NCBI GenBank assembly: GCA_963787925.1
Contig: CAWBEN010000005.1
Location: 265,651-329,650, forward strand
Direction of reading: 5' to 3'
DNA from: an uncultured delta proteobacterium
Lineage (GTDB): Bacteria > Myxococcota_A > Polyangia > Polyangiales > Polyangiaceae
Length of the DNA: 64,000 nt
The notes below the pieces were generated by a model. The model ran no database searches. It was not told where the DNA came from and saw only the letters and a list, made by a program, of their open reading frames with translations. The position numbers and the translations under genes were made by a program. The stretch's first letter is position 1. Each line of letters starts with the position of its first letter. Positions 40,299 to 64,000 of the stretch are shown here, one piece after another.

Positions 40299-40609
40299 GT
40301 GGATTGTCCTCGTTTCGTCCGTTTTGAAGTTGCGGCGCGCTTGTGTGCGCGATGGCGCATTGCGCCGCGTCGATCTCGAAGCGACGAGCGTGAGCTCCCG
40401 CGTCGCGTCGAAGCCCTTCGGTGCTGCACTTCGGCCCGCTTCGGTTCCTTCCCTGCGTGGTGGACGTCTCGCGGGCTAGTAACCGACCCGCATTGAAACG
40501 AGGCAACGGTCGGGTGTCTTGTGCGCGAACATACAAAAGAAGTACGACCCGAACCCCCCAGCGCCCCGGTTGTCGTTCAGTCCCACCCGAGAAGGAGGAG
40601 ACCAGTCAA

Positions 40610-41614: not shown

Positions 41615-41693
41615 CGACGGTCCTCTCCCGTCCGCGAAGGCCCAAACGCAACGCTAGAAGCAGCGCGTGGGCCTCGGCGGACGACCGGTGGGC

Positions 41694-42908: not shown

Positions 42909-43119
42909 GGTTGGCGTTCCCTGCTTTTTGCTGGTCTGGGTCAACCGCCGTCAGGGCGGACGTCCGGAGAGTCTGGCGAGTAGGTAGTAACCCCTGCCCG
43001 CCCGAATCAGGCACCTACGGCGTACGATTCTCGACCGCGCCCCACGTCGGCGCGCTGCTTGCTCACCCTTCGGATCGGTGACACCTATACGCCAGCGCGT
43101 CGCTTCGTGCGCCATCTCA

Positions 43120-43791: not shown

Positions 43792-43972
43792 ACGTCGCAG
43801 CGCTCGTGCGCCCGGGGCCACGGCTCGGCTCCGAAAAAGCACGGCCCGTGCCTGGCTACCGTCCGAACGGTTACAGACCCTCCGAAGGACGCGATCTCAT
43901 TTGGCCCCCTCGCACCGCATCCCCAAAGAAAACCGCTGGCTGCGGCTGGCTCCGTCCGAGCCGAAAGCGACC

Positions 43973-44557
43973 GTGGACGACGAATCGATTATCGACGCCG
44001 TCATCCGCGGCGACGTACGGCGCGCTGGCGAGCTTCATGACAGGCTGATCTCCGCGATCGAGGCCACCCTTTTTCGAGTGCTGGGCAAGCGCGAGGCCGA
44101 TCACGACGATCTGGTGCAAGCCACGTTCGAACAAGTGGTGGTCACGCTGATGCGCGGGCGCTTCTCGCGGGGCTGCAGCTTGTCGACCTGGGCCTCTTCC
44201 GTCGCGGCGCACGTGGCGTTCAACGCGCTGCGGTCCCGCCGCCGCGCGCGTCGCGTCTTCGATCCCGTCGAGCTGTCCGATGTCGCCGACCGGCAAACCG
44301 TGGGCGATCCCGAGCGCGACTTGGGCGTACGCGAGCAGATTCAAGCGGTGCAGGGCCATTTGACCGCCATGCCAGCAGACCGGGCGATGGTGCTGCTGCT
44401 TCACGACGTTCTTGGTAACGAGCTCGCCGAAATTGCGGCCACTCTCGGCATTTCCGTCGCGGCGGCGCAATCGCGCCTCGTTCGTGGAAGACGCGATCTT
44501 ACGAAGAGGTTAGGCCATGCCGTCGAGTCGCAGCGAGAGGGATCCGACCGTGCTTAG
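43973..44557 (+). CDS. ECF (sigma-70 family group IV) sigma factor
   Basis: ORF 43721..44557; in-frame GTG 43973. Region 2: DHDDLVQATFEQVV...STWASSVAAHVAFNALR. Region 4: LLLHDVLGNELAEIAATLGISVAAAQSRLVRGRRDL. Confidence 0.8.
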   Translation: MDDESIIDAVIRGDVRRAGELHDRLISAIEATLFRVLGKREADHDDLVQATFEQVVVTLMRGRFSRGCSLSTWASSVAAHVAFNALRSRRRARRVFDPVELSDVADRQTVGDPERDLGVREQIQAVQGHLTAMPADRAMVLLLHDVLGNELAEIAATLGISVAAAQSRLVRGRRDLTKRLGHAVESQREGSDRA

Positions 44558-44561
44558 TCAA

Positions 44562-45755
44562 ATGTCGAAACGTCCGGACGTGCTCGCCCTATGGTCGCGC
44601 CTACCGTTTCCCACCGAGTCGGCCACTGAGGCGACGACCGACGCGCCTGCAATGCGTTCGGCACGCAGGGACAGAGTGGTCATCGCCGTCGCTCGCACGA
44701 TGCAACGGACGGCGGCACGGAGCGCTCGACGAGCGCGGGTTTTGACGCGCCTCGGCGTAGGCGCTGCGATGGCGGCGGCATTGGCCATGGGAATCGCGTT
44801 CTGGCGAACGAGAGCGGCGGCCGAACCGGTCGTCGCGCGCCTATACACGCTGTTCGGAGCGTCGCACGCGCTCGTCGACGGTCGCGAGATCGTGCCCCCT
44901 TCGGACTCGGCGGCGTTGTCCCTTGCCTCCAGGTCCCAGGTCGCCACCGAGCAGGCAAGCTCGTCGCGGTTGCAGCTCGTGAGCGGAGTCGAAATCGCAG
45001 TGGGACCGGAGACGCGACTCACGCTGCCGGACGCGAAGGCCCCCTCGAGCATGCGTGAAGAGGTGACGCTCGAGCTTGGCTTCGTTCGAGTGCAAGTTCC
45101 CAAGCTCCCGCGCGGGCATTTCTTTTCAATCCGAACTCCCAACACGCTGGTATCGGTTCACGGGACGGCGTTTACCGTCGAAGTGACGAAGTCCGGACCT
45201 TCCGGCGCGGCGAGCACCAGGGTGATCGTGACCGACGGAGTCGTAGCCGTGCAGCAGGCCGAGCGTGAAATCTTGTTGGACGCTGGGACGGAGTGGGCCT
45301 CTTCGATCGAAAATTCGGCCGACCTTCCGCTGGGACCGCGGACCGCCACCGTCACCCGATCGCGATCGGCCGGCTCCCCGGGAGCGATGCCTCAGAAGGC
45401 CGATCGAGAAGCGGCGAACGCCATGCCATTCGCGCCCGACGCAGTCACGACTCGCGACGACGGCGCGACTCCCACCGACCTGGCGAATCAGAATCGCCTC
45501 TTCTCGGAAGCGATGCATGCGCGCGATCAAGGCGATCGCGCTGGCGCCGTTCGGCTACTGGACGAGTTCATCCGCCGCTATCCGGGAGCGCCATTGATGC
45601 AGGACGCCCACGTGGAGCGGTTTCGCGTGCTAGCCCAAATGGGCGCACGCGCCGCCGCGGTCCGGGCGGCGCGGGCTTATTTGGCTCGCTATCGCAACGG
45701 TTTTGCGCAAGACGAAGCGCGGGCCTTGGCCCTGGACGCGCCGCCTGATCCTTGA
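44562..45755 (+). CDS. Anti-sigma factor-like membrane protein with FecR domain and C-terminal TPR-like region
   Basis: ORF 44517..45755; ATG 44562 lies 5 nt after the sigma stop. One TM (LGVGAAMAAALAMGIAFW). FecR-type motif FSIRTPNTLVSVHGTAFTVEV. Confidence 0.7.
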   Translation: MSKRPDVLALWSRLPFPTESATEATTDAPAMRSARRDRVVIAVARTMQRTAARSARRARVLTRLGVGAAMAAALAMGIAFWRTRAAAEPVVARLYTLFGASHALVDGREIVPPSDSAALSLASRSQVATEQASSSRLQLVSGVEIAVGPETRLTLPDAKAPSSMREEVTLELGFVRVQVPKLPRGHFFSIRTPNTLVSVHGTAFTVEVTKSGPSGAASTRVIVTDGVVAVQQAEREILLDAGTEWASSIENSADLPLGPRTATVTRSRSAGSPGAMPQKADREAANAMPFAPDAVTTRDDGATPTDLANQNRLFSEAMHARDQGDRAGAVRLLDEFIRRYPGAPLMQDAHVERFRVLAQMGARAAAVRAARAYLARYRNGFAQDEARALALDAPPDP

Positions 45756-49979: not shown

Positions 49980-50693
49980 TCAGTCTCCTCGGACGCTGTC
50001 GGGAGCGAACTGCACGCCGAATTCAGAGGTGATTTCGTTCATGCCCTCAGGCGGCGCCGCGAAATAGACGGTCATCATCGACTCGCTCAGGCACTGCTGA
50101 AAGGCCGGATCGTCGAGCTCGCTCGACCGGTCGATTTCTGCCGAGTCCACGACCGCACCCACCCGCCGATCGCCGACGATCTTGAATCGAACCGTCACCT
50201 TGCCGCGCAGCTTCGGCGAGCCCACGAGCGCGTTCTCGTAGCACTGCGTCGCCAGTGGGATGAAGTCCTCGTGGATCCGTTCGGCGATGTACTTGCCTAG
50301 GCCCGCGTCGGCCTGATTGCCTCCGCCGATCTCGGGGTCTGGCATCGTCGCCTTTTCGCGCGTCTCCGTGGTGCCCGGCCTGGTTTCGCGCCACGCCGCG
50401 CCGGGCCCCGCGTCGAACATCGTCTGAAGAATTCGGCGCATCTCGGCGGTGCGTCGCGCGTCGGTCGCCGGGGCGCGGCCGAGGGTGAGACCGCTGCCCG
50501 AAGTTGCCATCGTGGCCGTTTGGTCGCTCGAAATCGGCACCGACGACGGGGCGCTCGTGGGCGCGCCAAACGCATCCTCCGTGCCAGGGCCTTCCCGTGC
50601 GGTCGGGAACGGACTTGCATGCCGCCACGCCCAACGGATCAACAAACCGACGAGCAGCACCACCACCGCGGCGACCGCAACCCACTTCCTCAC
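49980..50693 (-). CDS. Membrane-anchored protein with AgmX/PglI-type (TonB_C-like) C-terminal domain
   Basis: 237 aa. N-terminal TM WVAVAAVVVLLVGLLI. C-terminus ...ATQCYENALVGSPKLRGKVTVRFKIVGDRRVGAVV...DPAFQQCLSESMMTVYFAAPPEG. Confidence 0.65.
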   Translation of the reverse strand: MRKWVAVAAVVVLLVGLLIRWAWRHASPFPTAREGPGTEDAFGAPTSAPSSVPISSDQTATMATSGSGLTLGRAPATDARRTAEMRRILQTMFDAGPGAAWRETRPGTTETREKATMPDPEIGGGNQADAGLGKYIAERIHEDFIPLATQCYENALVGSPKLRGKVTVRFKIVGDRRVGAVVDSAEIDRSSELDDPAFQQCLSESMMTVYFAAPPEGMNEITSEFGVQFAPDSVRGD

Positions 50694-50760
50694 GTGCCCT
50701 CCACGATCAGCGCGCGCTGGCGATGATGGGCTCGGCCCGCGTCCCGCGCAACGGCGGCGG

Positions 50761-51282
50761 TCAGAAGTCGAACGACGGCGCGTCCGAAGTGCTCGCCTCG
50801 GGCGGCCCGGGGAGCGGCGCGCCCGTGCCGGCGTCGCGCGTCGCGGGCGCGCTGGAGGCGGTGACGCCTGCTTCGGTCACCATGCTCACGAGAATGCATC
50901 GGCGGCTCACTCGCTCGCAGAGCGCCAGGTCTCCCGAGACGCAGTTCGGAAGCGCACACTGATAGCAGCCGACGCTTTGGCCTGGGATTGTCAGCACGGC
51001 CTGCTCGGCCTCTGCGCGATAATTGGGATTCACCGCAAAATCGCAGGAGAGCACACCCGTGCAGTCCTTCGGATTGCCGAAGACCTTGATACACGCCTCG
51101 GGGTCGTCCGGATTGCACGCGTCCCAAGTCCGCTTGGCAGCGTAAGTATCGTTGCGCACCTTGGCGCACGACGGGCTGTCGCCGCAAGCTGTCAGGGGCA
51201 CTCCCACGGCGAATGAGGAGCACAGGACCAGCCCCCCGATCGTCACCAAGACTCCACTGCGTGCCGCGCGTATCAGGTTCAT
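50761..51282 (-). CDS. Cys-rich hypothetical lipoprotein
   Basis: 173 aa. Signal ...FAVGVPLTAC, about 12 Cys and an acidic/Pro-rich tail. Confidence 0.5.
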   Translation of the reverse strand: MNLIRAARSGVLVTIGGLVLCSSFAVGVPLTACGDSPSCAKVRNDTYAAKRTWDACNPDDPEACIKVFGNPKDCTGVLSCDFAVNPNYRAEAEQAVLTIPGQSVGCYQCALPNCVSGDLALCERVSRRCILVSMVTEAGVTASSAPATRDAGTGAPLPGPPEASTSDAPSFDF

Positions 51283-51327
51283 GACTCTTCCAACCCCCGC
51301 GAGAAATCGCCAAGTCCGCGCCGGCCG

Positions 51328-52392
51328 TCAGTGCACACGGGCGGCCTTCGCGCGCAAGATGCGTGCTGCTTCCCTAAAGCCTTGCTCGTTCGGGTGAGCG
51401 ATGGCGAGAGAGTCGTACTCTCGCGCGGCATCCTCGAAGTAACCGTGCGCCACCATTTCGAGCGCTTCTCGCTCGGGCGTGCGCGCGCCGTCTCGGACGA
51501 GGGCGTTGCGAGGCTCTGACTTCGCGGTTGGGGGCGCAGGGCCCGTTGCAAGGGCGGTCCCTTGGCCGTCCGATCCCTGCGCCGCGGAGACGTCGAGCGC
51601 CGCGCCCGGTCTGCCCGCTGCGCCGATCGCCGACGTCGACGCCGAGCCGCCAGTCGCTACTGGATGCGAGGAAGCTCCCACCGGCTTCGCCCCTGACTTC
51701 GGAAGGGGGCGGTCGTCGCCCTGGAAGACGAAATAGCCGAAAATGAGAGCAAACGGCGTGAGTAATAGCGTGACCTTCTTTACCGTCGAGGCCGACTTCC
51801 AGTAGCTCTTGGCCTCCGCGGCGCTCCCCGGGCTGTCGTCGTAACGCGCGGGCTTCGAAGGGGAGGAGGGCAGCGGAGCCGCTCCCGCCGGAGGAGCGCC
51901 GGGCCGCTGAGCGATCAACATCGTCGAGCCGAAGTCGCCGGGTGGCCCGGGTGGCGGGCTCGATAGAGACGCCTCCTTGGCCGCGTGAACGGCTCGCTGC
52001 GCGGCTTGCCAGAGCGCGCCGCCGTCGGAAAGCGTGGTCGGGAAGCCGGCCGGGTTTTCCGGTGCCGTGCTGAGCGGCGCTCTGCGGATCCGTAGGTAGG
52101 CGTCGCCGAAGCGGACCTCGCACGGGACCGGGGCCACCACCCACGCTCCGCCGATTCGGTCGCCAGCGAGAAGAACCGGCAAGTGCGACGATGCCGCGAC
52201 CACAAGGACGCTTTGTCCGTCGAAGCCCAGAAAGAGGTGCACGGAACCGACGCCATTGCCGACCACGCACCATTGCCCGTGCGAGCCCACCGAGAATGGC
52301 TGCGTCGCGACACCGGGCGAAAAAGCGATCGCGCCGAGCTCGGCTCGCGCACCGAGCACGCGAGCTTCGATGACCTCGCGCTCAGGTGCCAT
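51328..52392 (-). CDS. Hypothetical membrane protein with degenerate FHA-like N-terminal domain
   Basis: 354 aa. FSVGSHGQWCVVGNGVGSVHLFLGFDGQSVLVV...VRFGDAYLRI, a Pro-rich linker, one TM (VTLLLTPFALIFGYFVF) and a C-terminal helical region. Confidence 0.5.
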   Translation of the reverse strand: MAPEREVIEARVLGARAELGAIAFSPGVATQPFSVGSHGQWCVVGNGVGSVHLFLGFDGQSVLVVAASSHLPVLLAGDRIGGAWVVAPVPCEVRFGDAYLRIRRAPLSTAPENPAGFPTTLSDGGALWQAAQRAVHAAKEASLSSPPPGPPGDFGSTMLIAQRPGAPPAGAAPLPSSPSKPARYDDSPGSAAEAKSYWKSASTVKKVTLLLTPFALIFGYFVFQGDDRPLPKSGAKPVGASSHPVATGGSASTSAIGAAGRPGAALDVSAAQGSDGQGTALATGPAPPTAKSEPRNALVRDGARTPEREALEMVAHGYFEDAAREYDSLAIAHPNEQGFREAARILRAKAARVH

Positions 52393-53524
52393 GCGATCGC
52401 GCCCCCGCGGGCCCTGGCCGCTGCGCCAAGGCCAAGAGCTGATCAGGAAGCGTCACCCCGTGCTCGTGCAGCTGCTGCAAGCACGCGGGCGGAACTCCGG
52501 TCGGCCGCAGCTCACTCGAGATGCGGCCGTTTTGGTCGAAGCCCCGGTATTCCCGCGCGAAGAGGTCTTGCAACAGGTAGCGCTGGTCGACGACGTCGAA
52601 CCCCGTCACCTCGGTGACGTGCGTGACCTTGCGCGAGCCGTCCTGAAGCCGCGACACTTGGACGACGAGCTGAACGCCGGAGCCGATTTGCTGACGCATC
52701 GCCTGGAGCGGCATGTCGATGTCGCTCATCATGCACATCGTCTCGAGGCGGGTAAGAGTGTCTCGCGGGTGCGTCGCGTGGAGAGTTCCCATGCAACCGC
52801 CATGGCCGCTCGTCATCGCTTGCACGATGTCGAGCGCCTCGCCTCCCCGGATCTCGCCGACGACGACCCGGTCGGGGCGCATTCGCAGCGTGGCACGGAA
52901 GAGGTCGCGTATGCTCACGGCCCCCTTTCCCTTGGGATCCGCCGGGCGTGCCTCCAGCTGGACGACGTGCGGCTTCTGAAACTGCACCTCGCGGGAGTCC
53001 TCGATGACGACTACGCGTTCCCCGTCGGGGATGAAACCCGAGAGCGCGTTCAGCATCGAAGTCTTGCCGCTCCCCGTGCCGCCGGCGATCATGATGTTCA
53101 GCTTCGAGATCACCATCGCCTGCAGAGCCGCCGCAGCGATGCCGTCGAGCGATCCGAATTGGACGAGCCGCTCGACCGTGAGGGTCTCTTTGAAAAATCT
53201 ACGGATCGACACGTGCGGGCCGTCGGGGGCGACCGGAGGGATGATAGCCTCGACCCGCGAGCCATCGGGGAGGCGACCCTCGAGAATCGGGTGGGCTTCG
53301 TCGACGTGCTTTCCCACGTACTGCGAGAGGTTACGGAGCGCCGAGAGAAGAGCCTCGCGACTGCTGAACTTCGCGGGAACGAGCTCGATCAAGCCTCGGC
53401 GTTCGATGTAGATCCGATCCGGCCCGTTGATCATGATCTCGCTGACCGACGGATCGTCCAGATAAGGTCGCACGGGGGCAAAGAACTGGAGAAGCGTCTC
53501 CTCGAAGACGTTCTTCGGGATCAT
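52382..53524 (-). CDS. cpaF: CpaF/TadA-family secretion ATPase (short form, no FHA)
   Basis: 380 aa. SEIMINGPDRIYIERRG, Walker [31 protein letters not shown] and MGTLHA. Confidence 0.88.
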   Translation of the reverse strand: MIPKNVFEETLLQFFAPVRPYLDDPSVSEIMINGPDRIYIERRGLIELVPAKFSSREALLSALRNLSQYVGKHVDEAHPILEGRLPDGSRVEAIIPPVAPDGPHVSIRRFFKETLTVERLVQFGSLDGIAAAALQAMVISKLNIMIAGGTGSGKTSMLNALSGFIPDGERVVVIEDSREVQFQKPHVVQLEARPADPKGKGAVSIRDLFRATLRMRPDRVVVGEIRGGEALDIVQAMTSGHGGCMGTLHATHPRDTLTRLETMCMMSDIDMPLQAMRQQIGSGVQLVVQVSRLQDGSRKVTHVTEVTGFDVVDQRYLLQDLFAREYRGFDQNGRISSELRPTGVPPACLQQLHEHGVTLPDQLLALAQRPGPAGARSHGT

Positions 53525-54102
53525 CGGCCGCCCTGCAACGACGCGCGCGCCGCCTCCGAGTATTGGCCGTTCGGCCGAAGTCTTATGTACTCGCGCAATT
53601 CGTTGTCCGCGTCGAGCTTTCCGTTCTCTTCTTGGAGCAAGACGGTAGCGAGCGCGTAGTGCGCGTCGGCCATGTCAGGCCGCGCGGCCACGACGCGCTT
53701 CAGTGCTTCACCGGCTCGCTTGAGATTGCCGAGGGCGATGTCGACCGAGGCCAGCGCAAACTCTATTTCCACGTCGCCGGGGTGCTTGCGCAGGAAATCC
53801 TCGCCGTAGCTCGCGGCCGCGGGGTAACGCCCGTCCGTCACGCAGACCACGAGCAGCCGGGTGGTCAACACGCGCTCGTCACCGCCCGCGTCTCGTGCCG
53901 CCACGAAGTACTGCTCGGCGCGCGTCAGATCGCCCACGCGTGCCGCCGCCTCACCTCGCTCCTGCAAACGCGCCGGCGTCGTCTCGCTGCGTATCGACGC
54001 AGCGTCCTTCGCCGCTCGCTCGCGATGCGTTTCGGTGCAGCCGGCGCCAGTCGCGGTCACGAGAAGCGCCAGCGTCCATGCCGCCCGATAGTCACGGTTC
54101 AT
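53521..54102 (-). CDS. TPR-repeat lipoprotein (TadD-like position)
   Basis: ORF 53521..54159. ATG 54102 overlaps the upstream stop (ATGA). Signal ALLVTATGAGC. 3-4 TPR-like repeats (AEQYFVAARDAG; ALGNLKRAGEALKRVV; HYALATVLLQE). Confidence 0.65.
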   Translation of the reverse strand: MNRDYRAAWTLALLVTATGAGCTETHRERAAKDAASIRSETTPARLQERGEAAARVGDLTRAEQYFVAARDAGGDERVLTTRLLVVCVTDGRYPAAASYGEDFLRKHPGDVEIEFALASVDIALGNLKRAGEALKRVVAARPDMADAHYALATVLLQEENGKLDADNELREYIRLRPNGQYSEAARASLQGGR

Positions 54103-54968
54103 CGCGGACCGGCCTTTTGCTTGACGGTCTGGTTGGCGGCCGCCAACCAGTTGACCCACGGCCCCTGCTTTCCCTCCGTGAGCGATCGCAGCACCCTCAC
54201 GTCATTCTTCGCGAGCTCGTAGTCGCCGATGGCCATCAGGTGCTCGAGGCGGACGCGCCGCGCGCGGAAGTCTTGGGTCAACGAGGCGCGAAGCTGTTTG
54301 GCAGCGCTGTCTGCCTCCGCGGCGCTTGCCTGGTCGCCTGCCTGCTCGAAGCAGACGCGGGCCGTATCGTAGAGCAGGACGGCCTGGACACCGTCTTTCG
54401 GCGCAAATGGACTTCGCTCGCGCTTACCCTCGGCGATGTCGAACTTCTCGGCCGCGAACGAGCGGGCCTGATCTGCAGCGGCCTGCGGGCAGGTCGCCGG
54501 GGCGGGCGCGAAGAGCTCTGGCGCGCGCGTGGGAGCCATGGCCACGGTGGCCGTGTCCCAGTCGAGGACCAGGTAGCCTCCGGCCAGGAGGACACCCACT
54601 CCCAGCACCTTCATGAGCGGGCTCATGCCTTCTTTTTTCTGAGCGCGCACGAGAGGAGCCCCGTCGAGCGCAAAGTCACCGAGCGCGACGAAGAGCAACG
54701 TGGACCCAATCTTCAGCGGCACGTCGGGCGCGAGGGGGATGCTGGTGAACGCGACGCCGTTGACGGTCGCCGGAGGCTCGGACGCCTTGCTCTCCGCGCG
54801 CACCGTGCCACCGACGACCTGTATGGCGACATGTTCGCTCGCAGCCTGGTCGAGCGGCAATCGCACGTCGCAGTGTGCCCCGCTTCCGATGAGCAACCGC
54901 TCACCGTCCACGTGCGTCACGGCTTTGCGCCCGTCGGCGGAACGAATCTCGACTCGGAGAGTGCTCAA
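54099..54968 (-). CDS. FHA-domain membrane protein
   Basis: 289 aa. LLIGSGAHCDVRLPL...EHVAIQVVGG...TVNGVAF...LKIGSTLLFV, one TM (VLGVGVLLAGGYLVL) and a helical C-terminal domain. Confidence 0.7.
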   Translation of the reverse strand: MSTLRVEIRSADGRKAVTHVDGERLLIGSGAHCDVRLPLDQAASEHVAIQVVGGTVRAESKASEPPATVNGVAFTSIPLAPDVPLKIGSTLLFVALGDFALDGAPLVRAQKKEGMSPLMKVLGVGVLLAGGYLVLDWDTATVAMAPTRAPELFAPAPATCPQAAADQARSFAAEKFDIAEGKRERSPFAPKDGVQAVLLYDTARVCFEQAGDQASAAEADSAAKQLRASLTQDFRARRVRLEHLMAIGDYELAKNDVRVLRSLTEGKQGPWVNWLAAANQTVKQKAGPR

Positions 54969-54995
54969 TGGAAACCTCGACGGCGCCCGTTGTTC

Positions 54996-55895
54996 CTAGA
55001 GTTGTATGCTCATCGCCATGGGCGCGACGATGAGCACAAGGATGGCAACGAAGACCAGCATCAACGGCGCGACCATGGCGACACTGGCCTTGGCCGCGGC
55101 CTCCTCCGCGCGCACGCTCCGTCGCTGACGCGAAACCTCGGCTTGTATTCGGAGCACGTTCGCAACCGGATTGCCGCGGAGCTCGGCCTGGACCACGGCA
55201 CCCACGAACTCGTTCACGGCGTCCGTCGGAACGCGCTCCGCGAAGTCCTCGAGCGCTTGACGGCGCGTCCGCCCAAGCTGCAAGCCCTGCAGAATCAGCG
55301 TGAACTCTTCGACCGTAGGATCCTCGGGCGCGCCCGATTTTTGGACGACTTGTCTGACGGCGCCCGGGAAGTCGAGCCCCGCGCCCATCCCGAGCGCGAG
55401 GAGATCGATCGCGTACGGGAGGCGCCGGTTGACGGCCTTGAACCTCGCCCCCGCGGCGCTCGAGATGTTCATGCTCGGCGCCATCGCCCCAAATGCGGCG
55501 CACGCCACGGCCGCGAGGACCCCCATCCCGCTGACCGCCCCGAGCACCGCGCCGAAGACGAGGCCGGCCGCTCCGCTGAAAATGCTGAGGCTGACCACCT
55601 CTTCCGGGAGCAGACCAAGGTAGTCTCCAGCGACGGCGACCTGGTGGTCCACGCGTTCCCGAAATGCTTGCGGCAAGAGCCCGCTGACGCGCATGCCGAG
55701 CCATCGGACGGCGGGCTCGATGGAACGCCAGACCTCCTGCTGCTCGATGGCCCGCTGTCGTTTCAGCCCGCGAAGCCCCATCCGCTTGCCGTCACTCAGC
55801 GGCGCAATGGCCGCCGCATAGGTGACGAGCCAGAGGCAACTTCCGACGCACGAGCAAAGCAGGATTTTCAAAGCGAGAAGGCCTTGCGGCGTCAT
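54996..55895 (-). CDS. tadC: TadC-like inner-membrane platform protein (T2SSF family)
   Basis: ORF 54996..55943. ATG 55895 overlaps the tadB stop (ATGA). LPYAIDLLALGMGAGLDFPGAV...LQLGRTRRQALEDFAERV...RSVRAEEAAAKASV. Confidence 0.8.
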   Translation of the reverse strand: MTPQGLLALKILLCSCVGSCLWLVTYAAAIAPLSDGKRMGLRGLKRQRAIEQQEVWRSIEPAVRWLGMRVSGLLPQAFRERVDHQVAVAGDYLGLLPEEVVSLSIFSGAAGLVFGAVLGAVSGMGVLAAVACAAFGAMAPSMNISSAAGARFKAVNRRLPYAIDLLALGMGAGLDFPGAVRQVVQKSGAPEDPTVEEFTLILQGLQLGRTRRQALEDFAERVPTDAVNEFVGAVVQAELRGNPVANVLRIQAEVSRQRRSVRAEEAAAKASVAMVAPLMLVFVAILVLIVAPMAMSIQL

Positions 55896-56761
55896 ATGTC
55901 CACCGTGAGCACTTTGCGTGCAAGGAGCAGGGCTGCCACCCACAACGTGATGGCGAGCGTCATGACCGCGTATCCTGCAAAGCTTTGCTGCAGCGGATCG
56001 AAGTAGCCCGGCTGAACGAAATTGAACGCGGCGCAGATCCCGAACGGAAAGCCCACCAACACCCAGAGCTGGGCTCTGCCCTCGCCGGTTTTCGAACGGA
56101 CCACGCCTTCGAGGCGATTCATCTCGCGGATGGTCGCCGCCGTGTTCTCGAGGACCGTCGGAAGATTGCCTCCTACCTGGAGACCGATGAGGACGGCGCT
56201 CAGCGCCGAATCGATCGTGCGGCTGCCGATTCGGGCGGACATGTTGATGAGCGCCTGTTCGAGCGTGTTACCCACACGCATCTCCTTGACGACGAGGTCG
56301 ATCTCTTGCTTGGTCGGATTGTGCAAGAGCGGCACGACTGCCTGCAGTGCGGCCGCCGGCCCGGGGACTGTCTTCATCGAGTTGGCCAGCGAGAGGATGA
56401 ACCCGTCGATCTGGGACTCCAGCTTCACGAGTCGCTTCTTCCGCTCCATGGCCAGGTGGATCGCCGGTGCGATGGCGATCACGGCGACGAAGACGTACCA
56501 GTAAGGAACATCGAAGAGTGCCAACTCTACGGCGAGGATGGCTGCGATGAGGCCTAGCTGCCAACGCACGATTCTCTTGCCCGACCCCTCCTTGAAGAGA
56601 AGGCGCAAGACCTTGTCGAGGTGTTGAACGTAGCGCCACCAGCTGCGGGCGAGCACGCCATCCCCGAAGCCAACGGTCTGTATGAGGCTGCCGACCCCTA
56701 TGCCGGTAAGGAGGATCGCGACGTACTTCACGAGATCGAGCGCGGCGAGATGGACCCTCAT
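55892..56761 (-). CDS. tadB: TadB-like inner-membrane platform protein (T2SSF family)
   Basis: 3' part of the 856-aa ORF. ATG 56761 (MRVHLAALDLVKYVAILL...) overlaps, as ATGA, the TGA that ends the corrected cpaF frame. QIDGFILSLANSMKTVPGPAAAL...MRVGNTLEQALINMSARI. Confidence 0.8.
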   Translation of the reverse strand: MRVHLAALDLVKYVAILLTGIGVGSLIQTVGFGDGVLARSWWRYVQHLDKVLRLLFKEGSGKRIVRWQLGLIAAILAVELALFDVPYWYVFVAVIAIAPAIHLAMERKKRLVKLESQIDGFILSLANSMKTVPGPAAALQAVVPLLHNPTKQEIDLVVKEMRVGNTLEQALINMSARIGSRTIDSALSAVLIGLQVGGNLPTVLENTAATIREMNRLEGVVRSKTGEGRAQLWVLVGFPFGICAAFNFVQPGYFDPLQQSFAGYAVMTLAITLWVAALLLARKVLTVDI

Positions 56762-58462
56762 AGGAAAGGCTCGCCGGGTTTGATTAGGCCCATGACGATG
56801 AAGTCGTTGAGAAACGAAGGAAGAAAGCCGGTCGCGCGGAATTCGCCCAGGACGTCGCCCTTGGCGCCCGTGCCCGTTCGGTGAAACTCGAAGATCGGAA
56901 CGAGCTCGAACCTCTCCTTCGTCGTCGATTCCCGTGACCTCGGCGATCGCGGTCACCTTTCGCGTGCCGTCGGAGAGGCGCGTCTGCTGCACGAGGAGAT
57001 GGATGCTGCCCGCGATCTGCTCGCGTATCGCCCTGACCGGGAGGTCGACGCCGGCCATCAGAACCAGCGTCTCGAGGCGCGCGATCGCCTCGCGCGGGCT
57101 GTTGGCGTGCGTCGTCGTGAGCGACCCGTCGTGGCCCGTGTTCATTGCCTGGAGCATGTCGAGCGCCTCGCCGCCGCGGCATTCCCCCACGACGATGCGA
57201 TCCGGTCGCATGCGGAGGGCGTTCTTGACGAGATCGCGGATGGTGTATTCGCCCTTTCCTTCCATGTTCGCGGGCCGCGTCTCCAGCGAGACGACGTGCG
57301 GCTGCTTGAGCTGGAGCTCCGCCGCGTCTTCGATCGTGACGATGCGCTCGTCTTCCGGAATCGCGCCGGAGAGCACGTTGAGCAGGGTGGTCTTCCCGCT
57401 CCCCGTGCCGCCCGCAATGACGATGTTCTTCTTGGCGATGACGCTCCTCGTGAGAAAGCGACCCATGGCCACGGTCATCGCGCCGTAGGAGATGAGTTTT
57501 TCCAGGGTCAGCGGCGTCCTGGAAAACTTTCGAATGGTGATCGCCGACCCGCGGAGCGCGAGCGGGCGAATGATGGCGTTGACCCGCGACCCATCGCTCA
57601 AGCGCGCGTCGACGAGCGGCGAAGACTCGTCGATCCGCCGACCAAGCGGGGTGACGATGCGCTCGATCACGGCGCGGACCCGTTCGTCGTCCGTGAATTG
57701 CGCGTCCGATCGGAACAGCTTGCCGTTCTGCTCGATGTAGATCGTCGTCGGGTCGACGACCATGATCTCGTTCACGCTCGGATCGCTCAAGAATCGCTCG
57801 AGCGGTCCAAGACCGAGCGCCTCGTCGGCCAGCTCGCCGACGAGCGCATCGCGGTTGATGCTTTGCGGGATGGTCTCTTCAAGCGACTGCACGATCCGCC
57901 GCAGGGCGCTCAAGACTTTGGGACGAAGTGACGGGTCGTCCACCTGCGAGGGCTGAATGGTCGCGAGATCGAGGTGGTCCATGAGGAGCCTGTGGATCTC
58001 GCGGCGCAGCTCCACGTTCTCGCGGCGCGCCTTCTCTTCGGCCTGCTCGGCGGCGCGGCCCTTCGGTGCTTCGTTCGGCGCGCTTGCAGCGGCAGCCGCC
58101 CTGGCCGCGCGGCCTGTTCCGACGGCGCCAGCATCGGCAGCCGCGCCGTTGACGACGGGGGGATGGTCCGCGCGAGCCAGCCTCAACGTGTACTCCCCCA
58201 CGACGATGGGAACGCCGTGAGGCACGTCGGTTGCGCTATTGTGCACGAAGGTCGAGCCAGCAAGAGTGCCGTTTCGCGAAGAGTCGGCCACGAGCATTCG
58301 CGGCCCGTTCAAATCAATGCTGGCGTGGTTTCTCGAAATGAGCGTGCTGTCGAAAGACAGGCTGCAAGTCGGTGCGCGTCCGATCGTGACGACGCCGTCG
58401 GCGACGTTCAAGTCGCGCCTCTCCTGGCGCAAGCTCGACTCGATGACGACGTTCACGCGCAT
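56758..58462 (-). pseudogene. cpaF: FHA-domain-fused CpaF/TadA-family secretion ATPase, apparent 1-nt insertion near 56911
   Basis: N-terminal FHA: TIGRAPTCSLSFDSTLISRNHASIDL...DSSRNGTL. Then an Ala-rich linker and the ATPase ([53 protein letters not shown]). After ...GIDDEGE the listed frame turns Arg-rich. The adjacent frame reads [50 protein letters not shown], a normal CpaF C-terminus. Confidence 0.85.
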
Positions 58463-58496
58463 CGCGAGGGCTCCAGAGACGCGGCGTCTCCCCGCC

Positions 58497-59855
58497 TCAA
58501 TGCGACGGGGGGACGCCGACGCCCCCGCCTGGCTGTTTGTCGTAAGCGTTAACGTGCTCGATGCCGCCGCGGAAGTCCTTGAACTTGGCGAGCGCGCTGT
58601 TCACTAGCTCCTGCGCCGAGGCCGGAATGGTCGTGATCACGCTGGGGACCATGAAAATCGCTCCTTCGGTCAAGAGGGTGGTGTCCGAGTGGGATCCGAA
58701 GAGCAAGCCCAGGACCGGGATGTCTTTGAGCACCGGCAAGCCGCTCACGTTGTGGGTCGTCGATTCACGACGAATTCCCGAAAGGACGAGCGACTGGCCG
58801 AGCTTGAGGCTGACGTTCGTCGTGAGCTTGGAGCTCTGGCGCCCGGGCAGGCTCGTCCCGGCCGCCGACGCGGTGAGATCGGAAACCTCGGCAGACAGCT
58901 TCACCTCGATCTCGCGTTGCTCGGGATTGTACTTCGGTAAGACGATGAGCTCCGTCCCGAATGGGATCTTCTGCACCCCGACCCCCAGCCCCGTCGTGAC
59001 GGAGAAGTTTTGCTCACCGCCGTTGGAGAAGACGGCCTCGACGTCGTTGTTCGTGATGACGGTCGCCTGCTTGAGGACTTTGGCCCATCCCCTCGTCGAG
59101 GCGATGTCCAGCCGAGGCAACGGCTGGTTGGCGAGGGTTGCGGTCGCGGTGCGCGGCACGCCCCCCAAGAAATCGTAGGTGAAGGCATCTTGAAGAGAGC
59201 CGCCACCGATCGACGATGGCCACCCGATGCCGGCCGCGTACGTCGACTCCGTGTCGTACTGAACGAAGTAGAAGTCGATGCGGATCACGAACCGCTGCGC
59301 CTGCGCCGGCCCCGCAGAGACTCCGCTGCCCGCCACCGAGACGAGAGAGTCTACCTCTCCAGGATAAAGTGAGGTCACGTGCTGCACGCGTTTCAGGTCG
59401 CCGTCGCTCGCCACCGTACCGTCGATGACGATGTGCGCGCCCACGCGGCGGACGCGAACGCCCGGGAGGCCCTCGAGCAGCTGCGCCAACTCGCGCTCGA
59501 CGACTTGCGGCGATCGCGCGAAGACGTCGATGGCCAACGTGATCTGCGAACCATCGCTCTTGATGAGCAGCAACGTCGTGGACCCCTGGTGCCTTCCGTT
59601 GATCACGAACTGGCTGGCATCGGTCGTCAGCTTGACGTCGATGATTCCCGCGACCCCCTCGGAGTAATTGCGGACGTCTTTGGCGGAAATGGTCTTCGTC
59701 TCGCCGATGGCAAGGGTGATCGTTTCGCCATTCTGAGCCGCCGTCGGGTCGTTGCGCCACTGCGCGGCCGCTGGCTGGGGCGACGCAAAGCCAAGAACGA
59801 CGGCGGGAAGCGCGATCGCGAGCGCTCGCTTGCTCCGCGATTTCACCTGGATCAT
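58497..59855 (-). CDS. cpaC: CpaC/RcpA-type secretin
   Basis: 452 aa with a signal peptide. N-terminal pilus-formation/BON-like region (ITLAIGETKTISAKDV...GSTTLLL). Secretin core: LVLSGIRRESTTHNVSGLPVLKDIPVLGLLFGS. Confidence 0.88.
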   Translation of the reverse strand: MIQVKSRSKRALAIALPAVVLGFASPQPAAAQWRNDPTAAQNGETITLAIGETKTISAKDVRNYSEGVAGIIDVKLTTDASQFVINGRHQGSTTLLLIKSDGSQITLAIDVFARSPQVVERELAQLLEGLPGVRVRRVGAHIVIDGTVASDGDLKRVQHVTSLYPGEVDSLVSVAGSGVSAGPAQAQRFVIRIDFYFVQYDTESTYAAGIGWPSSIGGGSLQDAFTYDFLGGVPRTATATLANQPLPRLDIASTRGWAKVLKQATVITNNDVEAVFSNGGEQNFSVTTGLGVGVQKIPFGTELIVLPKYNPEQREIEVKLSAEVSDLTASAAGTSLPGRQSSKLTTNVSLKLGQSLVLSGIRRESTTHNVSGLPVLKDIPVLGLLFGSHSDTTLLTEGAIFMVPSVITTIPASAQELVNSALAKFKDFRGGIEHVNAYDKQPGGGVGVPPSH

Positions 59856-60634
59856 CTCGGCGCCCTTTCGACGTCGAGCTTGACGGGCCCTTGTGGCGCT
59901 CGTCGGAAGCTGCTCTGGACGGCTTGTCGTTTCTGCGAATCCGTGAGGGTCGTCGTGGTGAGGTCGGGCGGCGTCTCGGCGATCTTCTGGTCGTCCGGAT
60001 TGCGAACGACCACGGTCAATTTGCCTCGCTCCATCGCCAAAGCAAGGAGCTGGCCCTCTTGCAGCGAGACGCTCAACGTGAGTATCGAGGCGCGTTGCAG
60101 CGGTTTTCGGTCGAGGCCACGATCGTTGTTCGTGTCGGATCCCGTCGCCAGAATGAGCACACGCTGCAGCAAGACGGTGGCCTCTTTGGTGTCGTCGAAG
60201 ACACCGATGACGTCCACGAAGTCGCCCGGGTGAATGAGCGCGATCTCATCGCTGAAGACCACGCGAATTGGAATGGCTCGGTTTCCCGGTTGCACGAGAG
60301 AGCTCAAGTCACGCTGCTCGTCGGTGCTGGCGATCACGTCGGTCCAGGCGATGGTCTGCTGAACGGGGACGTTCGTCGTCGCGCGAAGGCCAATGATCTT
60401 GTCCTTGTCGGCTGCACGAATGACGCGATCGTCGACATAGGCTTGAGGGACCTCGCGGATACCGAGCATCTCGTCGGTAATCGGCTTGCCACGCTGGATC
60501 GGCGTGACGGCGGCGAGAAGCTCGATCCGTCGGCCGCCGGAGGCGACCTGCTCGAATCGCCTCATGTAAAAGAGAAGCAAAGCAATGCCCGCCGCCCCGG
60601 CGAGCAATCCGACAAAGAGAGGCCGTATCTTCAT
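59852..60634 (-). CDS. cpaB: CpaB/RcpC-type pilus assembly protein (SAF domain)
   Basis: 260 aa. N-terminal TM LFVGLLAGAAGIALLLF. SAF-type IELLAAVTPIQRGKPITDEML. The stop overlaps the cpaC start (ATGA). Confidence 0.8.
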   Translation of the reverse strand: MKIRPLFVGLLAGAAGIALLLFYMRRFEQVASGGRRIELLAAVTPIQRGKPITDEMLGIREVPQAYVDDRVIRAADKDKIIGLRATTNVPVQQTIAWTDVIASTDEQRDLSSLVQPGNRAIPIRVVFSDEIALIHPGDFVDVIGVFDDTKEATVLLQRVLILATGSDTNNDRGLDRKPLQRASILTLSVSLQEGQLLALAMERGKLTVVVRNPDDQKIAETPPDLTTTTLTDSQKRQAVQSSFRRAPQGPVKLDVERAPR

Positions 60635-60737
60635 GAAAAGTGCTTTCAGGGCCGACGCTGGGAGGTTCTAACAGAGTCGCGCGGGCGCGTGAACCGCGCT
60701 GTTTCGATGTGCGCCGAGCGTTCGTCACCCATGCCGT

Positions 60738-61709
60738 TCAATTCTCCACGTGAACTTCGGCTAGCGTCGGCGTATCGGTACGAGCCGTCTCGATGGCCGT
60801 CAGCATCGTACGACCGCCGTCGTTCACCATCGTGAGATAGAGCATCGGCCCTCCGTCCTTCATGTAGACGACGCCGTCGTGGTGCTCCAGCCCATCGACG
60901 ACGAGCGCCCAGCCACGGGCCTTCATCTCGGCATCGTAAAAGTGCTGCACTGCCGACCGAGGCTCCGCCGAATCGTAGATATGCACACCGTAAGGAACCT
61001 GGCTCGCCGTGGCCGAGAGGATCCTCCTCGCGTGGGGCGGTCGGGGAACCATCGGCGAGTCGAAGCCCACGGCGTCGCCCGTCGCCGGGAACATTTCGTC
61101 GATATTGAATTTGCCTTCGGTCCAGATCGTGGTCACCCGCGTCCGCCCCGATGCGGACCTTGCTACGTACGCGTACCGAAAATGGCCGAACGCGGAGAGG
61201 TCATGCGAGCGGAGAAACGCCCTCAGGCGGTCGGGCAACTCGGCGAGCGAGAGGGAGTGCTCGTCGGCAAAACAGGTGAGGGCACCTTCGTCGCCATTCT
61301 CCTTGCGGACAATTCCGAGCCGCAGGCGGTGGTCCGGCACGATGGCGTTCGTCTTGTCCTCGAGCGTGGCGGGAATGTTGGCGAGCGCACGCGCCATGAG
61401 GCCTGGGTGCTCGCGGCAGACCGCCTCGAAGCGATCGAGGACGCTCGTCGGAGCTTCTCCCGTCGAGGCCGTCGAAACGTTCATCGCCACGCCGTTGATG
61501 AATACCGACTTCGTGCTCCCCAGAAGGTCGCCCACGCCCGCTAGCTCCTTGCCCACCTGCAGTGTGCCTTCCTGGAAATCGGCATACACGACGTGGGCGG
61601 CCGCGAGCGCGCAGAGGCACGTCACGAAGAAAGCGTACGCAGAGACCCGGGTCAGCGCGAAGAAGCGGTGGCGCAGCCAAGAGCTTCCGTTCCTCAAAGT
61701 GTTCATCAT
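60738..61709 (-). CDS. Membrane-anchored hypothetical protein embedded in the Tad-like operon
   Basis: 323 aa with one N-terminal TM (AYAFFVTCLCALAAAHVVY). No motif recognised. Confidence 0.5.
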   Translation of the reverse strand: MMNTLRNGSSWLRHRFFALTRVSAYAFFVTCLCALAAAHVVYADFQEGTLQVGKELAGVGDLLGSTKSVFINGVAMNVSTASTGEAPTSVLDRFEAVCREHPGLMARALANIPATLEDKTNAIVPDHRLRLGIVRKENGDEGALTCFADEHSLSLAELPDRLRAFLRSHDLSAFGHFRYAYVARSASGRTRVTTIWTEGKFNIDEMFPATGDAVGFDSPMVPRPPHARRILSATASQVPYGVHIYDSAEPRSAVQHFYDAEMKARGWALVVDGLEHHDGVVYMKDGGPMLYLTMVNDGGRTMLTAIETARTDTPTLAEVHVEN

Positions 61710-61723
61710 GGCCGCGGCCCCCC

Positions 61724-62275
61724 CTACCAGCTGAATGCGTGCTGCACGTAACCGATCGCCCCGTTGATGTCTCCGTCCTTTTGAACGTCGCCACAGCTCA
61801 TGAACGAGTTCGAGTACACCGTGTGAACGAACCAGCCGCGTCGCGCGGGGTCCGCCGAGCTCACCGTTTGCATGTTGTTCGACGCCACCGCCTTGAGGCT
61901 GATTCCCGCGATCTTGTCGAGCGCAAAACCTTCGCTACCCATGGCCGAGCCAACGGGGTCGCCTCCGCCATTCCCTACTTTGGTGTCCGGCTGCATCCCG
62001 CTGGTGGACGGCTGCGCGGCAGAGCCCGATTGGTTGTCCGCCGCCCGACCCAGATCGGGCTGGATGCTGCTCAGCGCCTGTCCGTCGGGGCACGCATCCA
62101 TGGCGTAGGCGACGGCCGCCGCGCGCGCCAGACGCTGAACGCGCAGCTTCTCCTGATAGAGCATTCGGAAATAGGCGATACCGACGAAAAAGATCACGAA
62201 GACCGACATGACGCAGATCGCTTCGACCATGGCCGCTCCGCGCTGTCGTGCCCGATTCGCTCGAATGGCTTTCAT
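61724..62275 (-). CDS. TadE-like pseudopilin
   Basis: 183 aa. N-terminus QRGAAMVEAICVMSVFVIFFVGIAYF has the TadE-type G/A-x-x-x-E hydrophobic segment. Confidence 0.7.
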   Translation of the reverse strand: MKAIRANRARQRGAAMVEAICVMSVFVIFFVGIAYFRMLYQEKLRVQRLARAAAVAYAMDACPDGQALSSIQPDLGRAADNQSGSAAQPSTSGMQPDTKVGNGGGDPVGSAMGSEGFALDKIAGISLKAVASNNMQTVSSADPARRGWFVHTVYSNSFMSCGDVQKDGDINGAIGYVQHAFSW

Positions 62276-62285
62276 GGTGTCGCCC

Positions 62286-63883
62286 TCAATGCAAGGTGAG
62301 CGGGTAGTTTCGCACCGAGGTTCCGAGCTCCGCCTTCGCCTGGAAATTCGTGAGATTGACGCTCGATAGCCGGCTTATCCCGTCCACGACGATCTTCGCC
62401 TTGAGGCCCTTTTCGTACATCGAAATCACCGAACCTCCCGTGAATGCGTCGGGATTGAAGAGTCGAAACCTCGCGCGCCAGTGGAAATTCCACATCGCGT
62501 CGTCCGTCCCGTTGCAGCTGTCCGTGCCCCAGTCTCCCTTGCAATCGTAAAAGAACTCGGCCTGCGCCCACGAGATGAGCTGGTAAAACGTCGGGTCGCT
62601 CATCGTGACGTTGCCGCGCGAGCCAATGCTGACGAACCGGGCCGAGTACGTGCTGTTGCTCTTGTTCGTGTCGCTGTAGACGAGCGATGCGATCTGCGCG
62701 TCCTTGATTCCGTTGTGCCAATCTTGCTTCACCTTCGACGGGGTCTTGTCGCCCTGCACGTTGGCGGGCCCGGTCCCCGCGGCGGCGACCTTCTGCTGCG
62801 CCTTCGATTGGCCGTTGCCCTGCTTGTTCTTGACGTCGTCCTCGCAGGTCGACAGTCCGTCGCATTGCTGCTGGGAGGCGTCGGCGATGGCTTGGAGTTG
62901 CGTTACCTGCTGGACCTGGGTGGCGGTCGTGCTGGGGCCAGGGTCCCCGTTGTCGTCGTAACCGAAGGCCCGTTTTTTCAGGTCGACATTCCCCTGGTCC
63001 GTCTGGGCTTTGCCACACGCTTCGGCTTGCGACGCCTTGCAGCGGTCGGTCCCGAGCTTGGTGGCGGGGCCCGACAAGTCCGGTGGAGTACCTCCTCCGC
63101 TGAGCTCGCAAAATACGTCGCTCACGCCGATGCCCGAAATGAGGTCCTTCAACATGCCCATGAATTTTTTTCCGATTTCGCCAGGCGTAATCGAGCCGAG
63201 CAAACCGCCCACGCCGTCGAAAGCCTTGGCGCAGAGCTTCGATGTCGTGTCCTTTTCGACCGGAAGCCCCCACGAGCTGTCGCCGGTACCTCCTACGATG
63301 CTGGAACCCACGGCGACGGCGGGGATCTTCAGGGTGGGCCGGTATTTGAAGCGATCACCTGCGCAGCGCCCAACGCCCCCGCGGGCGTCGCGTATTGAAC
63401 GAACGTCTCGGCCTTGTTCAACAGAATGAGCGCCTCGTCGATCGGCTGCCGCGTGACGTTGTCGGCGGTCTGCATCGCCTGGGCGCCCTCTACGGCGAGG
63501 AGCTCGAGCCCGTGGAAGAAGACGGCGGTCGGCAGAAAGGGGACATCGCCGAGAACGTCGAAGATGCCCGCCAGGATGATCAGCGTGTACTTGATGAGGT
63601 TGATGGCCACGCGGATGGCGAGGATCGCGGCCATCAAGAGATTGACGAGAACGATGACGTTCATCCCGCGCGCGTTGATGACGGCGGTACTGAACGCGAC
63701 GGCGTCCGCGCCTTCTTGCATACGCTCGCGGTAAACGAGCGCATCGCCCACCCCCGCGATGTACCAGAGCGCACCGACCAGAAAGATGCACATGGGAATC
63801 CCCATGACCATGATCGCGCCGCGACGATCGGCGACGAGGCTCCGGGCAGCCTTCGTAACGCGCACGCCCGGGTCACGGTTCAT
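62286..63883 (-). pseudogene. TadG-like pilus-assembly protein, apparent 1-nt frameshift near 63350
   Basis: ORF 63329..63916 gives the N-terminal Tad-type segment (RRGAIMVMGIPMCIFLVGALWYIAGVGDALVYRERMQEGADAVAFSTAV). The frame of ORF 62286..63791 is plausible only from FKYRPTLKIPAVAVGSS onward. The switch lies at gtgatcgcttcaaatac. The start is taken at ATG 63883 (MNRDPG); 63916 is the alternative. Confidence 0.65.
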
Positions 63884-64000
63884 GGGCGGAGCCGTCCGTG
63901 GCGGCGTGGGGAACATCGATCATCAAAATTTCCTCGAGCGGATACTCATCGGGATCGTCGGCTGCCCACATTTCGCCCTCGCGCCGTTCGTAAAACCGTA
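63873..64000 (-). CDS. 3' end of an unidentified upstream gene of the same operon (5' end off the right edge)
   Basis: Manual translation gives ...RFYERREGEMWAADDPDEYPLEEILMIDVPHAATDGSAHEP*. The stop TGA at 63873..63875 overlaps the TadG-like start region. Confidence 0.3.
   Translation of the reverse strand, partial: RFYERREGEMWAADDPDEYPLEEILMIDVPHAATDGSAHEP

Follow-up and report, generated by a model that had tools for sequence, protein, structure and literature searches.

Gene content and organization of the cluster

The last 14 kb of a 64,000-nucleotide stretch of contig CAWBEN010000005.1, from an uncultured member of the Polyangiaceae (Myxococcota), carry a gene cluster for a machine that is almost certainly Tad-type. 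The whole 64-kb stretch is referred to here as the window. With moderate confidence, we read the locus as a Kil-type Tad (type IVc) pilus cluster that is cut by the window edge, with the window holding the distal ~14 kb of what would be a cluster of roughly 19–20 kb. Fourteen open reading frames (ORFs) run unbroken on the minus strand from 63883/63916 to 49980, separated by short gaps or joined by ATGA-type overlaps, and the original prediction of such a contiguous run was borne out by the ORF coordinates. All cluster genes described below lie on this strand.

Products were assigned with profile searches against Pfam and NCBIfam, with an additional PDB profile search for one FHA-like gene. The family labels first proposed from the sequence held for both CpaF-type ATPases, TadB, TadC, CpaC, CpaB, FHA, TPR and AgmX/PglI, with a weak match for TadE (E 1e-3). 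By homology, a CpaB/RcpC protein (59852..60634; Pfam RcpC 2.3e-15, SAF 3.6e-6) and a 452-aa CpaC/RcpA secretin (58497..59855; Pfam Secretin 2.1e-28, T2SS-T3SS_pil_N 6.7e-5) would form an outer-membrane conduit, TadB- and TadC-type proteins the inner-membrane platform, and an FHA-CpaF protein the motor. This KilF-like motor ATPase (56758..58462) joins an FHA domain (Pfam FHA 3.7e-10, residues 25–89) to a T2SSE domain (9.2e-60, residues 216–493), and its gene contains a 1-nt insertion at ~56912. The start of the TadB-type gene (55892..56761; Pfam T2SSF 3.8e-9 within a fused ORF) overlaps the CpaF stop (ATGA), and the TadC-type gene (54996..55895; T2SSF 4.1e-16) begins with an ATG at 55895. It is followed by an FHA protein of the YscD/PrgH-like kind with a transmembrane (TM) segment (54099..54968; Pfam Yop-YscD_cpl 1.7e-7), in the position that MXAN_4649 occupies in Myxococcus xanthus.

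The remaining parts recognized by homology are TadG-like and TadE-like minor prepilins, the FHA+TM protein above and a second one, a TPR lipoprotein, and a second CpaF-family ATPase (ATPase2). The TadG-like (KilN-like) large minor pilin (62286..63883) has the N-terminus RRG/AIMVMGIPMCIFLVGALWYI and then a Cys-rich C-terminal domain; its gene carries a 1-nt deletion at ~63348, and its product matched no family in Pfam or NCBIfam. The 183-aa TadE-like (KilM-like) minor prepilin (61724..62275) scored under the Pfam gathering score for TadE, and shows the motif RG/AAMVEA followed by a hydrophobic helix. Accompanying this minor-pilin block is a conserved membrane-anchored protein of 323 aa (60738..61709), called unk323 here, with no match in Pfam and no sequence match in the PDB. 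None of its 67 relatives carries a protein name, and the few organism labels among them are Polyangiaceae or Myxococcales. A confident AlphaFold model (pLDDT 89, pTM 0.79) places a long N-terminal helix before alpha/beta domains, and comparison of that model with PDB folds gave nothing significant (best E 2.7e-3, TM < 0.25).

Distal to the platform genes, the TPR lipoprotein (53521..54102; lipobox TGAGC) matches several TPR Pfam families and has a weak NCBIfam likeness to BamD, PilW and Tgl, each under its cutoff; it is a possible pilotin for the secretin. ATPase2 (52382..53524; Pfam T2SSE 9.3e-56) has no FHA domain and precedes an FHA-like protein with a TM segment (51328..52392) that lacks a Pfam match. 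The N-terminal profile of the latter, built from 19 homologues, had FHA domains as all of its top five PDB matches, the best being that of Rv0020c at E 0.005. Of the three FHA modules originally counted, those of FHA-CpaF and the Yop-YscD_cpl protein are clear, and the FHA label of the protein after ATPase2 is weakly supported by these matches. The run ends with a 173-aa lipoprotein containing 12 Cys (50761..51282; lipobox LTAC; no family match in Pfam or NCBIfam) and a protein with an AgmX/PglI C-terminal domain (49980..50693; NCBIfam NF033768 2.1e-11, 43.8 bits against a cutoff of 40).

Conservation across related loci

A genome scan with the secretin recovered 38 related loci, all of them from Polyangiaceae, Labilithrix or Myxococcales metagenome-assembled genomes (MAGs), with a best identity of 74%. 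Twenty-seven of the loci are orthologous (secretin 56–74% identical), and 22 of these extend to the TPR gene. The order CpaB-CpaC-FHACpaF-TadB-TadC-FHA/TM-TPR-ATPase2-FHA-like/TM is retained in 17 of these 22 informative loci. In the other five (L006, L009, L010, L020, L021) both ATPases are missing, with CpaC directly next to TadB and the TPR gene next to the FHA-like gene. FHA-CpaF and ATPase2 are jointly present in or jointly absent from the cluster, a both-or-none pattern that appears new.

The final three genes had been singled out as foreign to classical Tad operons, and this distinctive tail is conserved in part. The FHA-like/TM gene is kept in 22 loci, and homologues of the Cys-rich lipoprotein occupy the same position in 10, with one weak match elsewhere on the opposite strand (L023). 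The AgmX/PglI-tail gene has weak matches only, in 2 of the 38 loci; because it is not conserved downstream in relatives, it is probably a neighbor and not a part of the machine. On the proximal side, TadE-like homologues occur in 20 loci and unk323 homologues adjoin TadE in 19 orthologous loci. The block TadE2-TadG-TadE-unk323, where TadE2 is a further TadE-type gene, is co-directional with the core in L001, L004, L016, L020 and L021, and lies divergently a few kb upstream in many.

No TadZ/CpaE was detected, as had been predicted. No product of the window contains a ParA/MinD-type domain by Pfam profiles, and a coarse regular expression for the deviant Walker A motif of TadZ found nothing in the window or in the clusters of all 38 loci.

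In L026–L031, L033–L035, L037 and L038 we found a further Tad/Kil-like system, a paralogue with 45–52% secretin identity. It occurs in MAGs that also hold an orthologous locus (for example L025/L029, L005/L031, L012/L030 and L013/L033), and some copies include an ATPase2 as well (about 60% identity).

Probable pilin and prepilin peptidase genes beyond the window edge

The window contains no Flp-like ORF, no A24 peptidase and no TadE2 homologue, and the cluster was initially described as a machine that starts at 63.9 kb and lacks pilin and prepilin peptidase. The cluster does not begin there, since 63873..64000 holds the last 42 codons of another ORF on the minus strand, one that is cut by the window edge and has the position of an immunity gene downstream of a PT-HINT gene. 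This was established with a Logan contig from a sister strain (L039), retrieved through an exact-protein look-up with CpaB. L039 is 98.3% identical at the nucleotide level to window positions 57152–64000 and runs 1162 nt past the edge. All 42 residues encoded at 63873–64000 equal the end of a 170-aa ORF (L039:778-1290) upstream of TadG, and upstream of that ORF lie the C-terminal 259 aa of a PT-HINT protein (L039:2-781; Pfam Pretoxin-HINT 2.5e-20). The toxin C-terminus of this protein matched no Pfam family, and its PDB match was insignificant (E 0.05). We also considered that the edge ORF might be the C-terminus of TadE2 in another frame, which L039 ruled out. A metagenome scan with the TadG N-terminus gave no match.

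The two closest loci with the co-directional layout of the window, L001 and L004, indicate what may lie further upstream. In L001 the order is FlpB, Flp (Flp_Fap 2.7e-7), TadV (Peptidase_A24 2.5e-12), TadE2, a small ORF, TadG, TadE, unk323 and CpaB; L004 has the same order minus the small ORF. Pfam matches for this layout include TadE at 1e-6. Of the 27 orthologous loci, 25 encode a TadV homologue, which mostly lies immediately before CpaB and is itself preceded by two Flp genes, and Flp genes are present in most orthologous loci. A window without Flp, A24 peptidase and TadE2 is expected if a layout of the L001/L004 type is cut at TadG.

The absence of pilin and peptidase is thus most likely an artefact of the window edge, and the source genome is likely to carry both Flp and TadV upstream of the window. 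From the sister strain and the collinear relatives we infer that the region just upstream holds the immunity-position ORF, a TadE/KilL-like minor pilin with a PT-HINT module, TadV and two Flp genes. More generally, the absence of a component should not be trusted when it is called at a window edge.

Prepilin-toxin fusions in relatives

Several relatives encode prepilins fused in frame to modules of polymorphic toxins. The TadE2 of L001 (L001:3993-5528) comprises a whole TadE-like pilin followed by PT-HINT (1.3e-18) and Ntox21 (3.9e-12), and the ORF after it resembles a CdiI_N immunity protein. In L007 (2182-3474, minus strand), L016 (2752-4050) and L017 (1831-3975, minus strand), a Flp-like prepilin fused to PT-HINT directly follows the unk323 gene. 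Ten of 20 metagenomic homologues inspected begin with a prepilin-type N-terminus that continues into PT-HINT and varied C-terminal regions, and proteins of this type include P0123, P0127, P0128, P0129, P0139, P0142 and P0147. Precomputed Pfam annotation flags several toxin domains across this hit set: Ntox21 falls in a single protein of the prepilin type (P0139), whereas RNase Sa, Tox-URI2 and ADP-ribosyltransferase domains fall in proteins that are truncated or of other types. The fused prepilins keep the G/XXXXE site and the hydrophobic helix.

An unrelated metagenome contig (L040) carries an ATPase2 homologue at L040:2-928, 61% identical to the ATPase2 of the window and 56% to its FHA-CpaF ATPase (CpaF1). 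Directly after it lie three prepilin-toxin genes (L040:897-5813), each with a small ORF in the immunity position behind it; two of these ORFs have Pfam matches, to CdiI_N and DUF4279. The placement of an ATPase2 homologue directly upstream of three prepilin-toxin genes suggests a genetic link between ATPase2 and the pilin-toxins. Small downstream ORFs were observed in L001, L039 and L040, two of them CdiI_N-like. In the lineage of the window itself, L039 shows no more than the C-terminal portion with PT-HINT and the small ORF behind it.

The fusion of TadE- or Flp-type prepilins to PT-HINT and predicted polymorphic toxin domains, with putative immunity genes, appears new. Literature searches on pilin-toxin fusions returned essentially nothing relevant beyond one paper (PMC12605009) that briefly names ARC toxins joined to 'Flp pilins'. 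The accessible text of the survey of polymorphic toxins by Zhang et al. 2012 (PMC3482391) does not contain the words pilin, pilus, Flp or TadE, and lists no pilin or Tad trafficking mode.

Two CpaF-family ATPases

That the cluster encodes two ATPases, as first proposed, is confirmed by the T2SSE matches of both products. ATPase2 has intact Walker A, Asp box, Walker B and His box motifs and is the best-conserved protein of the cluster (72–89% identical in 17 of the 22 orthologous loci that reach its position). We placed both ATPases in a neighbor-joining tree built from 196 columns of the published alignment of Seef with the window and its relatives added. There ATPase2 makes up a separate clade on a long branch (bootstrap 100), and with no more than 43% identity to CpaF1 across the aligned region it is not a recent duplicate. 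Its top NCBIfam matches are of the TadA/TrbB/VirB11 type (TIGR03819 3e-84). An assignment of ATPase2 to the PilT-type retraction ATPases by family was ruled out, with PilT scoring 7.6e-13 against 3e-84 for TIGR03819.

The canonical Tad pilus is described as operating with one bifunctional CpaF in the accessible part of a preprint (bioRxiv 10.1101/2024.10.28.620641), and a literature search on two-CpaF loci found essentially nothing relevant. The pairing of a divergent second ATPase of the CpaF family with an FHA-like membrane protein, conserved in 17 of 22 informative loci, appears new. Having a conserved second CpaF paralogue within the operon matters for the question of Tad pilus extension and retraction, both now attributed to a single bifunctional ATPase. 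Any specific role that might be assigned to ATPase2 is doubtful.

In the same tree, the Polyangiaceae CpaF1 clade is sister to the Kil-like ATPases of Bradymonadales (bootstrap 91) and lies far from the alpha-proteobacterial CpaF of Caulobacter and Agrobacterium. M. xanthus KilF does not group specifically with the CpaF1 clade, so membership in Kil rests on the Bradymonadales relationship and on architecture. On these grounds the locus is likely to be Kil-like.

Frameshifts in two genes

The gene models first drawn for the run stand except for two 1-nt frameshifts that had been missed. In the TadG-like gene, a blastn comparison with L039 places a deleted A in GCTT[A]CAAATACC at ~63348 (surrounding site GCTTACAAATACC); the gene is whole in L039 (532 aa) and a single ORF in L001. 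In FHA-CpaF, an extra C after GAGGTT at ~56912 puts the last 51 codons in the other frame, so that the C-terminus (...GEPFL) is encoded in the shifted frame. Because of this insertion the ORF finder read CpaF and TadB as one 856-aa ORF. In relatives the CpaF halves abut in one frame (checked in L001; judged from adjacent coordinates in other loci). A scan of the window for frameshifts by GC3 phase was too noisy to be informative.

The remaining indels between the window and L039 are only changes in the length of intergenic poly-G tracts. These are G4 versus G5 at 58493, just upstream of the CpaF start in what is likely the ribosome-binding region, and G7 versus G6 at 61724, directly after the TadE stop.

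Proposed function and alternatives

Kil is a machine with which myxobacteria kill prey on contact. It was defined as a Tad-like core whose ATPase is fused to FHA, accompanied by numerous FHA proteins and a short secretin and lacking TadZ, and whether it is itself a toxin-secretion device was left unclear (Seef 2021 PMC8460266). Later work showed that killing needs a pilus with exchangeable minor-pilin tips and identified no toxin (Herrou 2025 PMC12075869). For the Polyangiaceae cluster, we put the chance that it serves in killing or toxin delivery at even or slightly better.

We hypothesize that cell contact would trigger FHA-dependent assembly of the machine, as in Myxococcus Kil. FHA-CpaF would then polymerize a short Flp pilus, with a tip of three pilins (KilL-like/TadG/TadE) as primer, and this pilus might touch or penetrate the target cell. 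Toxin domains on tip or Flp-like pilins could ride outward on this pilus and be freed by HINT autoproteolysis, with cognate immunity proteins from the downstream ORFs shielding the producer. ATPase2 and its FHA-like membrane partner may act as a conserved accessory motor module, either in retraction or in the handling of bulky toxin-pilins. In its strongest form, this proposal would make the Kil-like Tad pili of Polyangiaceae polymorphic-toxin delivery devices with ATPase2 and its partner as a dedicated loading or retraction motor, an idea that we advance tentatively. A Kil-like sister lineage with in-frame pilin-HINT-toxin fusions and immunity genes provides a testable hypothesis for the killing step.

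Several observations weigh against this interpretation. The window itself holds no pilin-toxin gene, no Flp and no TadV, and the upstream genes are deduced from a sister strain that reaches 1.16 kb past the edge and from relatives with 64–74% secretin identity. HINT fusions occur in a minority of related loci (L001, L007, L016, L017, L039), and the TadE2 of L004 is plain. Both ATPases are locally absent in five orthologous loci, KilF does not join the CpaF1 clade in a tree of 196 columns, and the role given to ATPase2 is speculation. Finally, the frameshifts in FHA-CpaF and TadG may mean that this copy is inactive.

Tad pili are generally adhesins (Seef 2021 PMC8460266), and the cluster might encode an ordinary adhesive Tad/Flp pilus for attachment or biofilm formation, in which the FHA proteins are merely regulatory and the toxin fusions are incidental cargo of a hypervariable neighborhood. 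Once the upstream genes of relatives are included, the full set of canonical Tad parts bar TadZ is present, and most related loci lack the HINT fusion, both of which agree with adhesion. We nonetheless regard it as unlikely, because the traits said to separate Kil from Tad (Seef 2021 PMC8460266) are an FHA domain fused to the ATPase and a YscD-like FHA protein, both of which occur here, because the ATPase groups with that of the predatory Bradymonadales, and because toxin and immunity modules that recur across several lineages in frame with intact G/XXXXE prepilins are hard to call incidental. A more radical proposal, that of a Tad-derived envelope or secretion machine without pilin or peptidase and separate from pilus-forming systems, draws on the absence of Flp, A24 peptidase and TadZ from the 64-kb window. 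It is largely refuted and very improbable: the cluster runs on past the window edge, two Flp genes and TadV immediately precede the block in collinear relatives, with TadV in nearly all orthologous loci, and a peptidase is required for the prepilin cleavage motifs that the TadE- and TadG-like proteins retain.

Compatible with any of these functions is the possibility that the copy is decaying in this strain and that the TadG-like and FHA-CpaF frameshifts are genuine inactivating mutations. Both indels (56912 and 63348) lie outside homopolymer runs, the sister strain (98.3% identity) has a whole TadG, and relatives read CpaF in a single frame. Set against this, Logan contigs of run ERR11571141 contain the exact TadE and CpaB of the window beside split unk323 and secretin genes, which suggests noisy long reads and residual assembly indels, and the other operon genes are all intact and conserved with no wider decay seen. 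We therefore lean somewhat toward assembly artefacts for both indels and consider decay of the cluster possible without expecting it. A Kil-type pilus cluster truncated by the window edge remains the interpretation that we favor. If toxin delivery by such pili proves true, it would provide a molecular answer to Tad/Kil killing and add the type IVc pilus to the routes by which polymorphic toxins are trafficked.

Neighboring genes

The rest of the window near the operon consists of unrelated housekeeping genes, including radical SAM, MFS, TonB-dependent receptor, phosphoesterase, ECF sigma/FecR and CHAD genes. A TonB-dependent receptor (34716-37262, minus strand; Plug and beta-barrel) has an N-terminal TonB_C-like domain (Pfam 4.1e-7). 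At 38086-42944 (minus strand), two proteins of ~400 aa that have weak DUF6087 matches only alternate with a tandem pair of Phosphoesterase-family (PF04185) genes, and an ECF sigma/FecR pair lies at 43721-45755. Downstream of the operon in L004, the segment L004:20111-21085 shows by eye a Ser/Thr-kinase-like motif (…GTPFYMAPEQ…DLWSMGV…) and could be relevant to FHA signaling.

Comparison with known systems

The nearest described analogue, as first suggested, is the Kil system of M. xanthus (MXAN_3102-3108 and MXAN_4648-4661). Both have an FHA domain fused to a CpaF-type ATPase, CpaB, a secretin, two platform proteins, many FHA modules, no TadZ and a host in the Myxococcota. Both also have an FHA/PrgH(YscD)-like protein by the platform genes: MXAN_4649, which adjoins KilH (Seef 2021 PMC8460266, Supplementary file 1), and the gene after TadC in the window. 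The Kil parts further include Flp adapters, a major Flp pilin encoded at a distance (KilP), and tip trimers of KilL, KilN and KilM (TadF/TadG/TadE-like), encoded in the order kilL-kilN-kilM (Herrou 2025 PMC12075869); this order equals the TadE2-TadG-TadE order of the relatives when protein types, not sequences, are compared. The systems differ in that Kil is split between two clusters where the window has one, and KilP is remote whereas Flp genes and peptidase are in-cluster in relatives. The window adds a Cys-rich lipoprotein and another ATPase of the CpaF family, the latter paired with an FHA-like/TM protein, and a cytoplasmic FHA-TPR protein of the KilD type was not recognized in it, the TPR protein here being a lipoprotein without FHA. 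In the accessible text of Seef 2021 and Herrou 2025, the extra conserved genes and paired ATPases have no counterpart, in keeping with the original prediction, and PT-HINT-fused pilins such as those of relatives are not mentioned.

Joining the core genes in a single cluster, which had been put forward as a novelty, is not new, as contiguous CpaB-CpaC-ATPase-TadB-TadC homologues were already listed for Bradymonas sediminis (DN745_00680-00700; Seef 2021 PMC8460266). That locus shares its gene order with the window, and its ATPase belongs to the sister group of the CpaF1 clade; the ATPase tree of 196 columns points to Bradymonadales, with no supported link to M. xanthus KilF. Labilithrix luteola and Sandaracinus have contiguous kil-core matches and no matches to the Tip1-4 HMMs (Herrou 2025 PMC12075869). 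The kil core in Polyangia is therefore already catalogued, and the locus type is undescribed.

Canonical Tad/Cpa systems (Aggregatibacter tad, Caulobacter cpa) have in common with the window CpaF/TadA, TadB/C, RcpA/CpaC, RcpC/CpaB and pseudopilins of the TadE/F/G kind, and with its relatives Flp prepilins bearing G/XXXXEY and a TadV/CpaA peptidase. The present cluster differs in the lack of TadZ/CpaE, the FHA-fused ATPase, the presence of two ATPases and the extra FHA/TM proteins. The Tad genes of Bdellovibrio bacteriovorus, a predator, include several TadA paralogues with FHA/TPR regulators near tad genes (bioRxiv 10.64898/2026.07.08.737194). There, however, the paralogues lie apart from one another, as an rcpA2-tadA2 module and tadA3, tadA2 is dispensable, and the main ATPase is a TadZ-TadA fusion where the window has FHA-TadA.

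Polymorphic toxin systems such as Rhs and CdiA (PMC3482391) resemble the relatives of the window in the combination of PT-HINT, a variable C-terminal toxin and a downstream immunity gene (CdiI_N), and the Ntox21 domain of relatives is of the Enterobacter cloacae CdiA-CT type. What differs is the N-terminal trafficking module, which in the relatives is a Flp or TadE prepilin.

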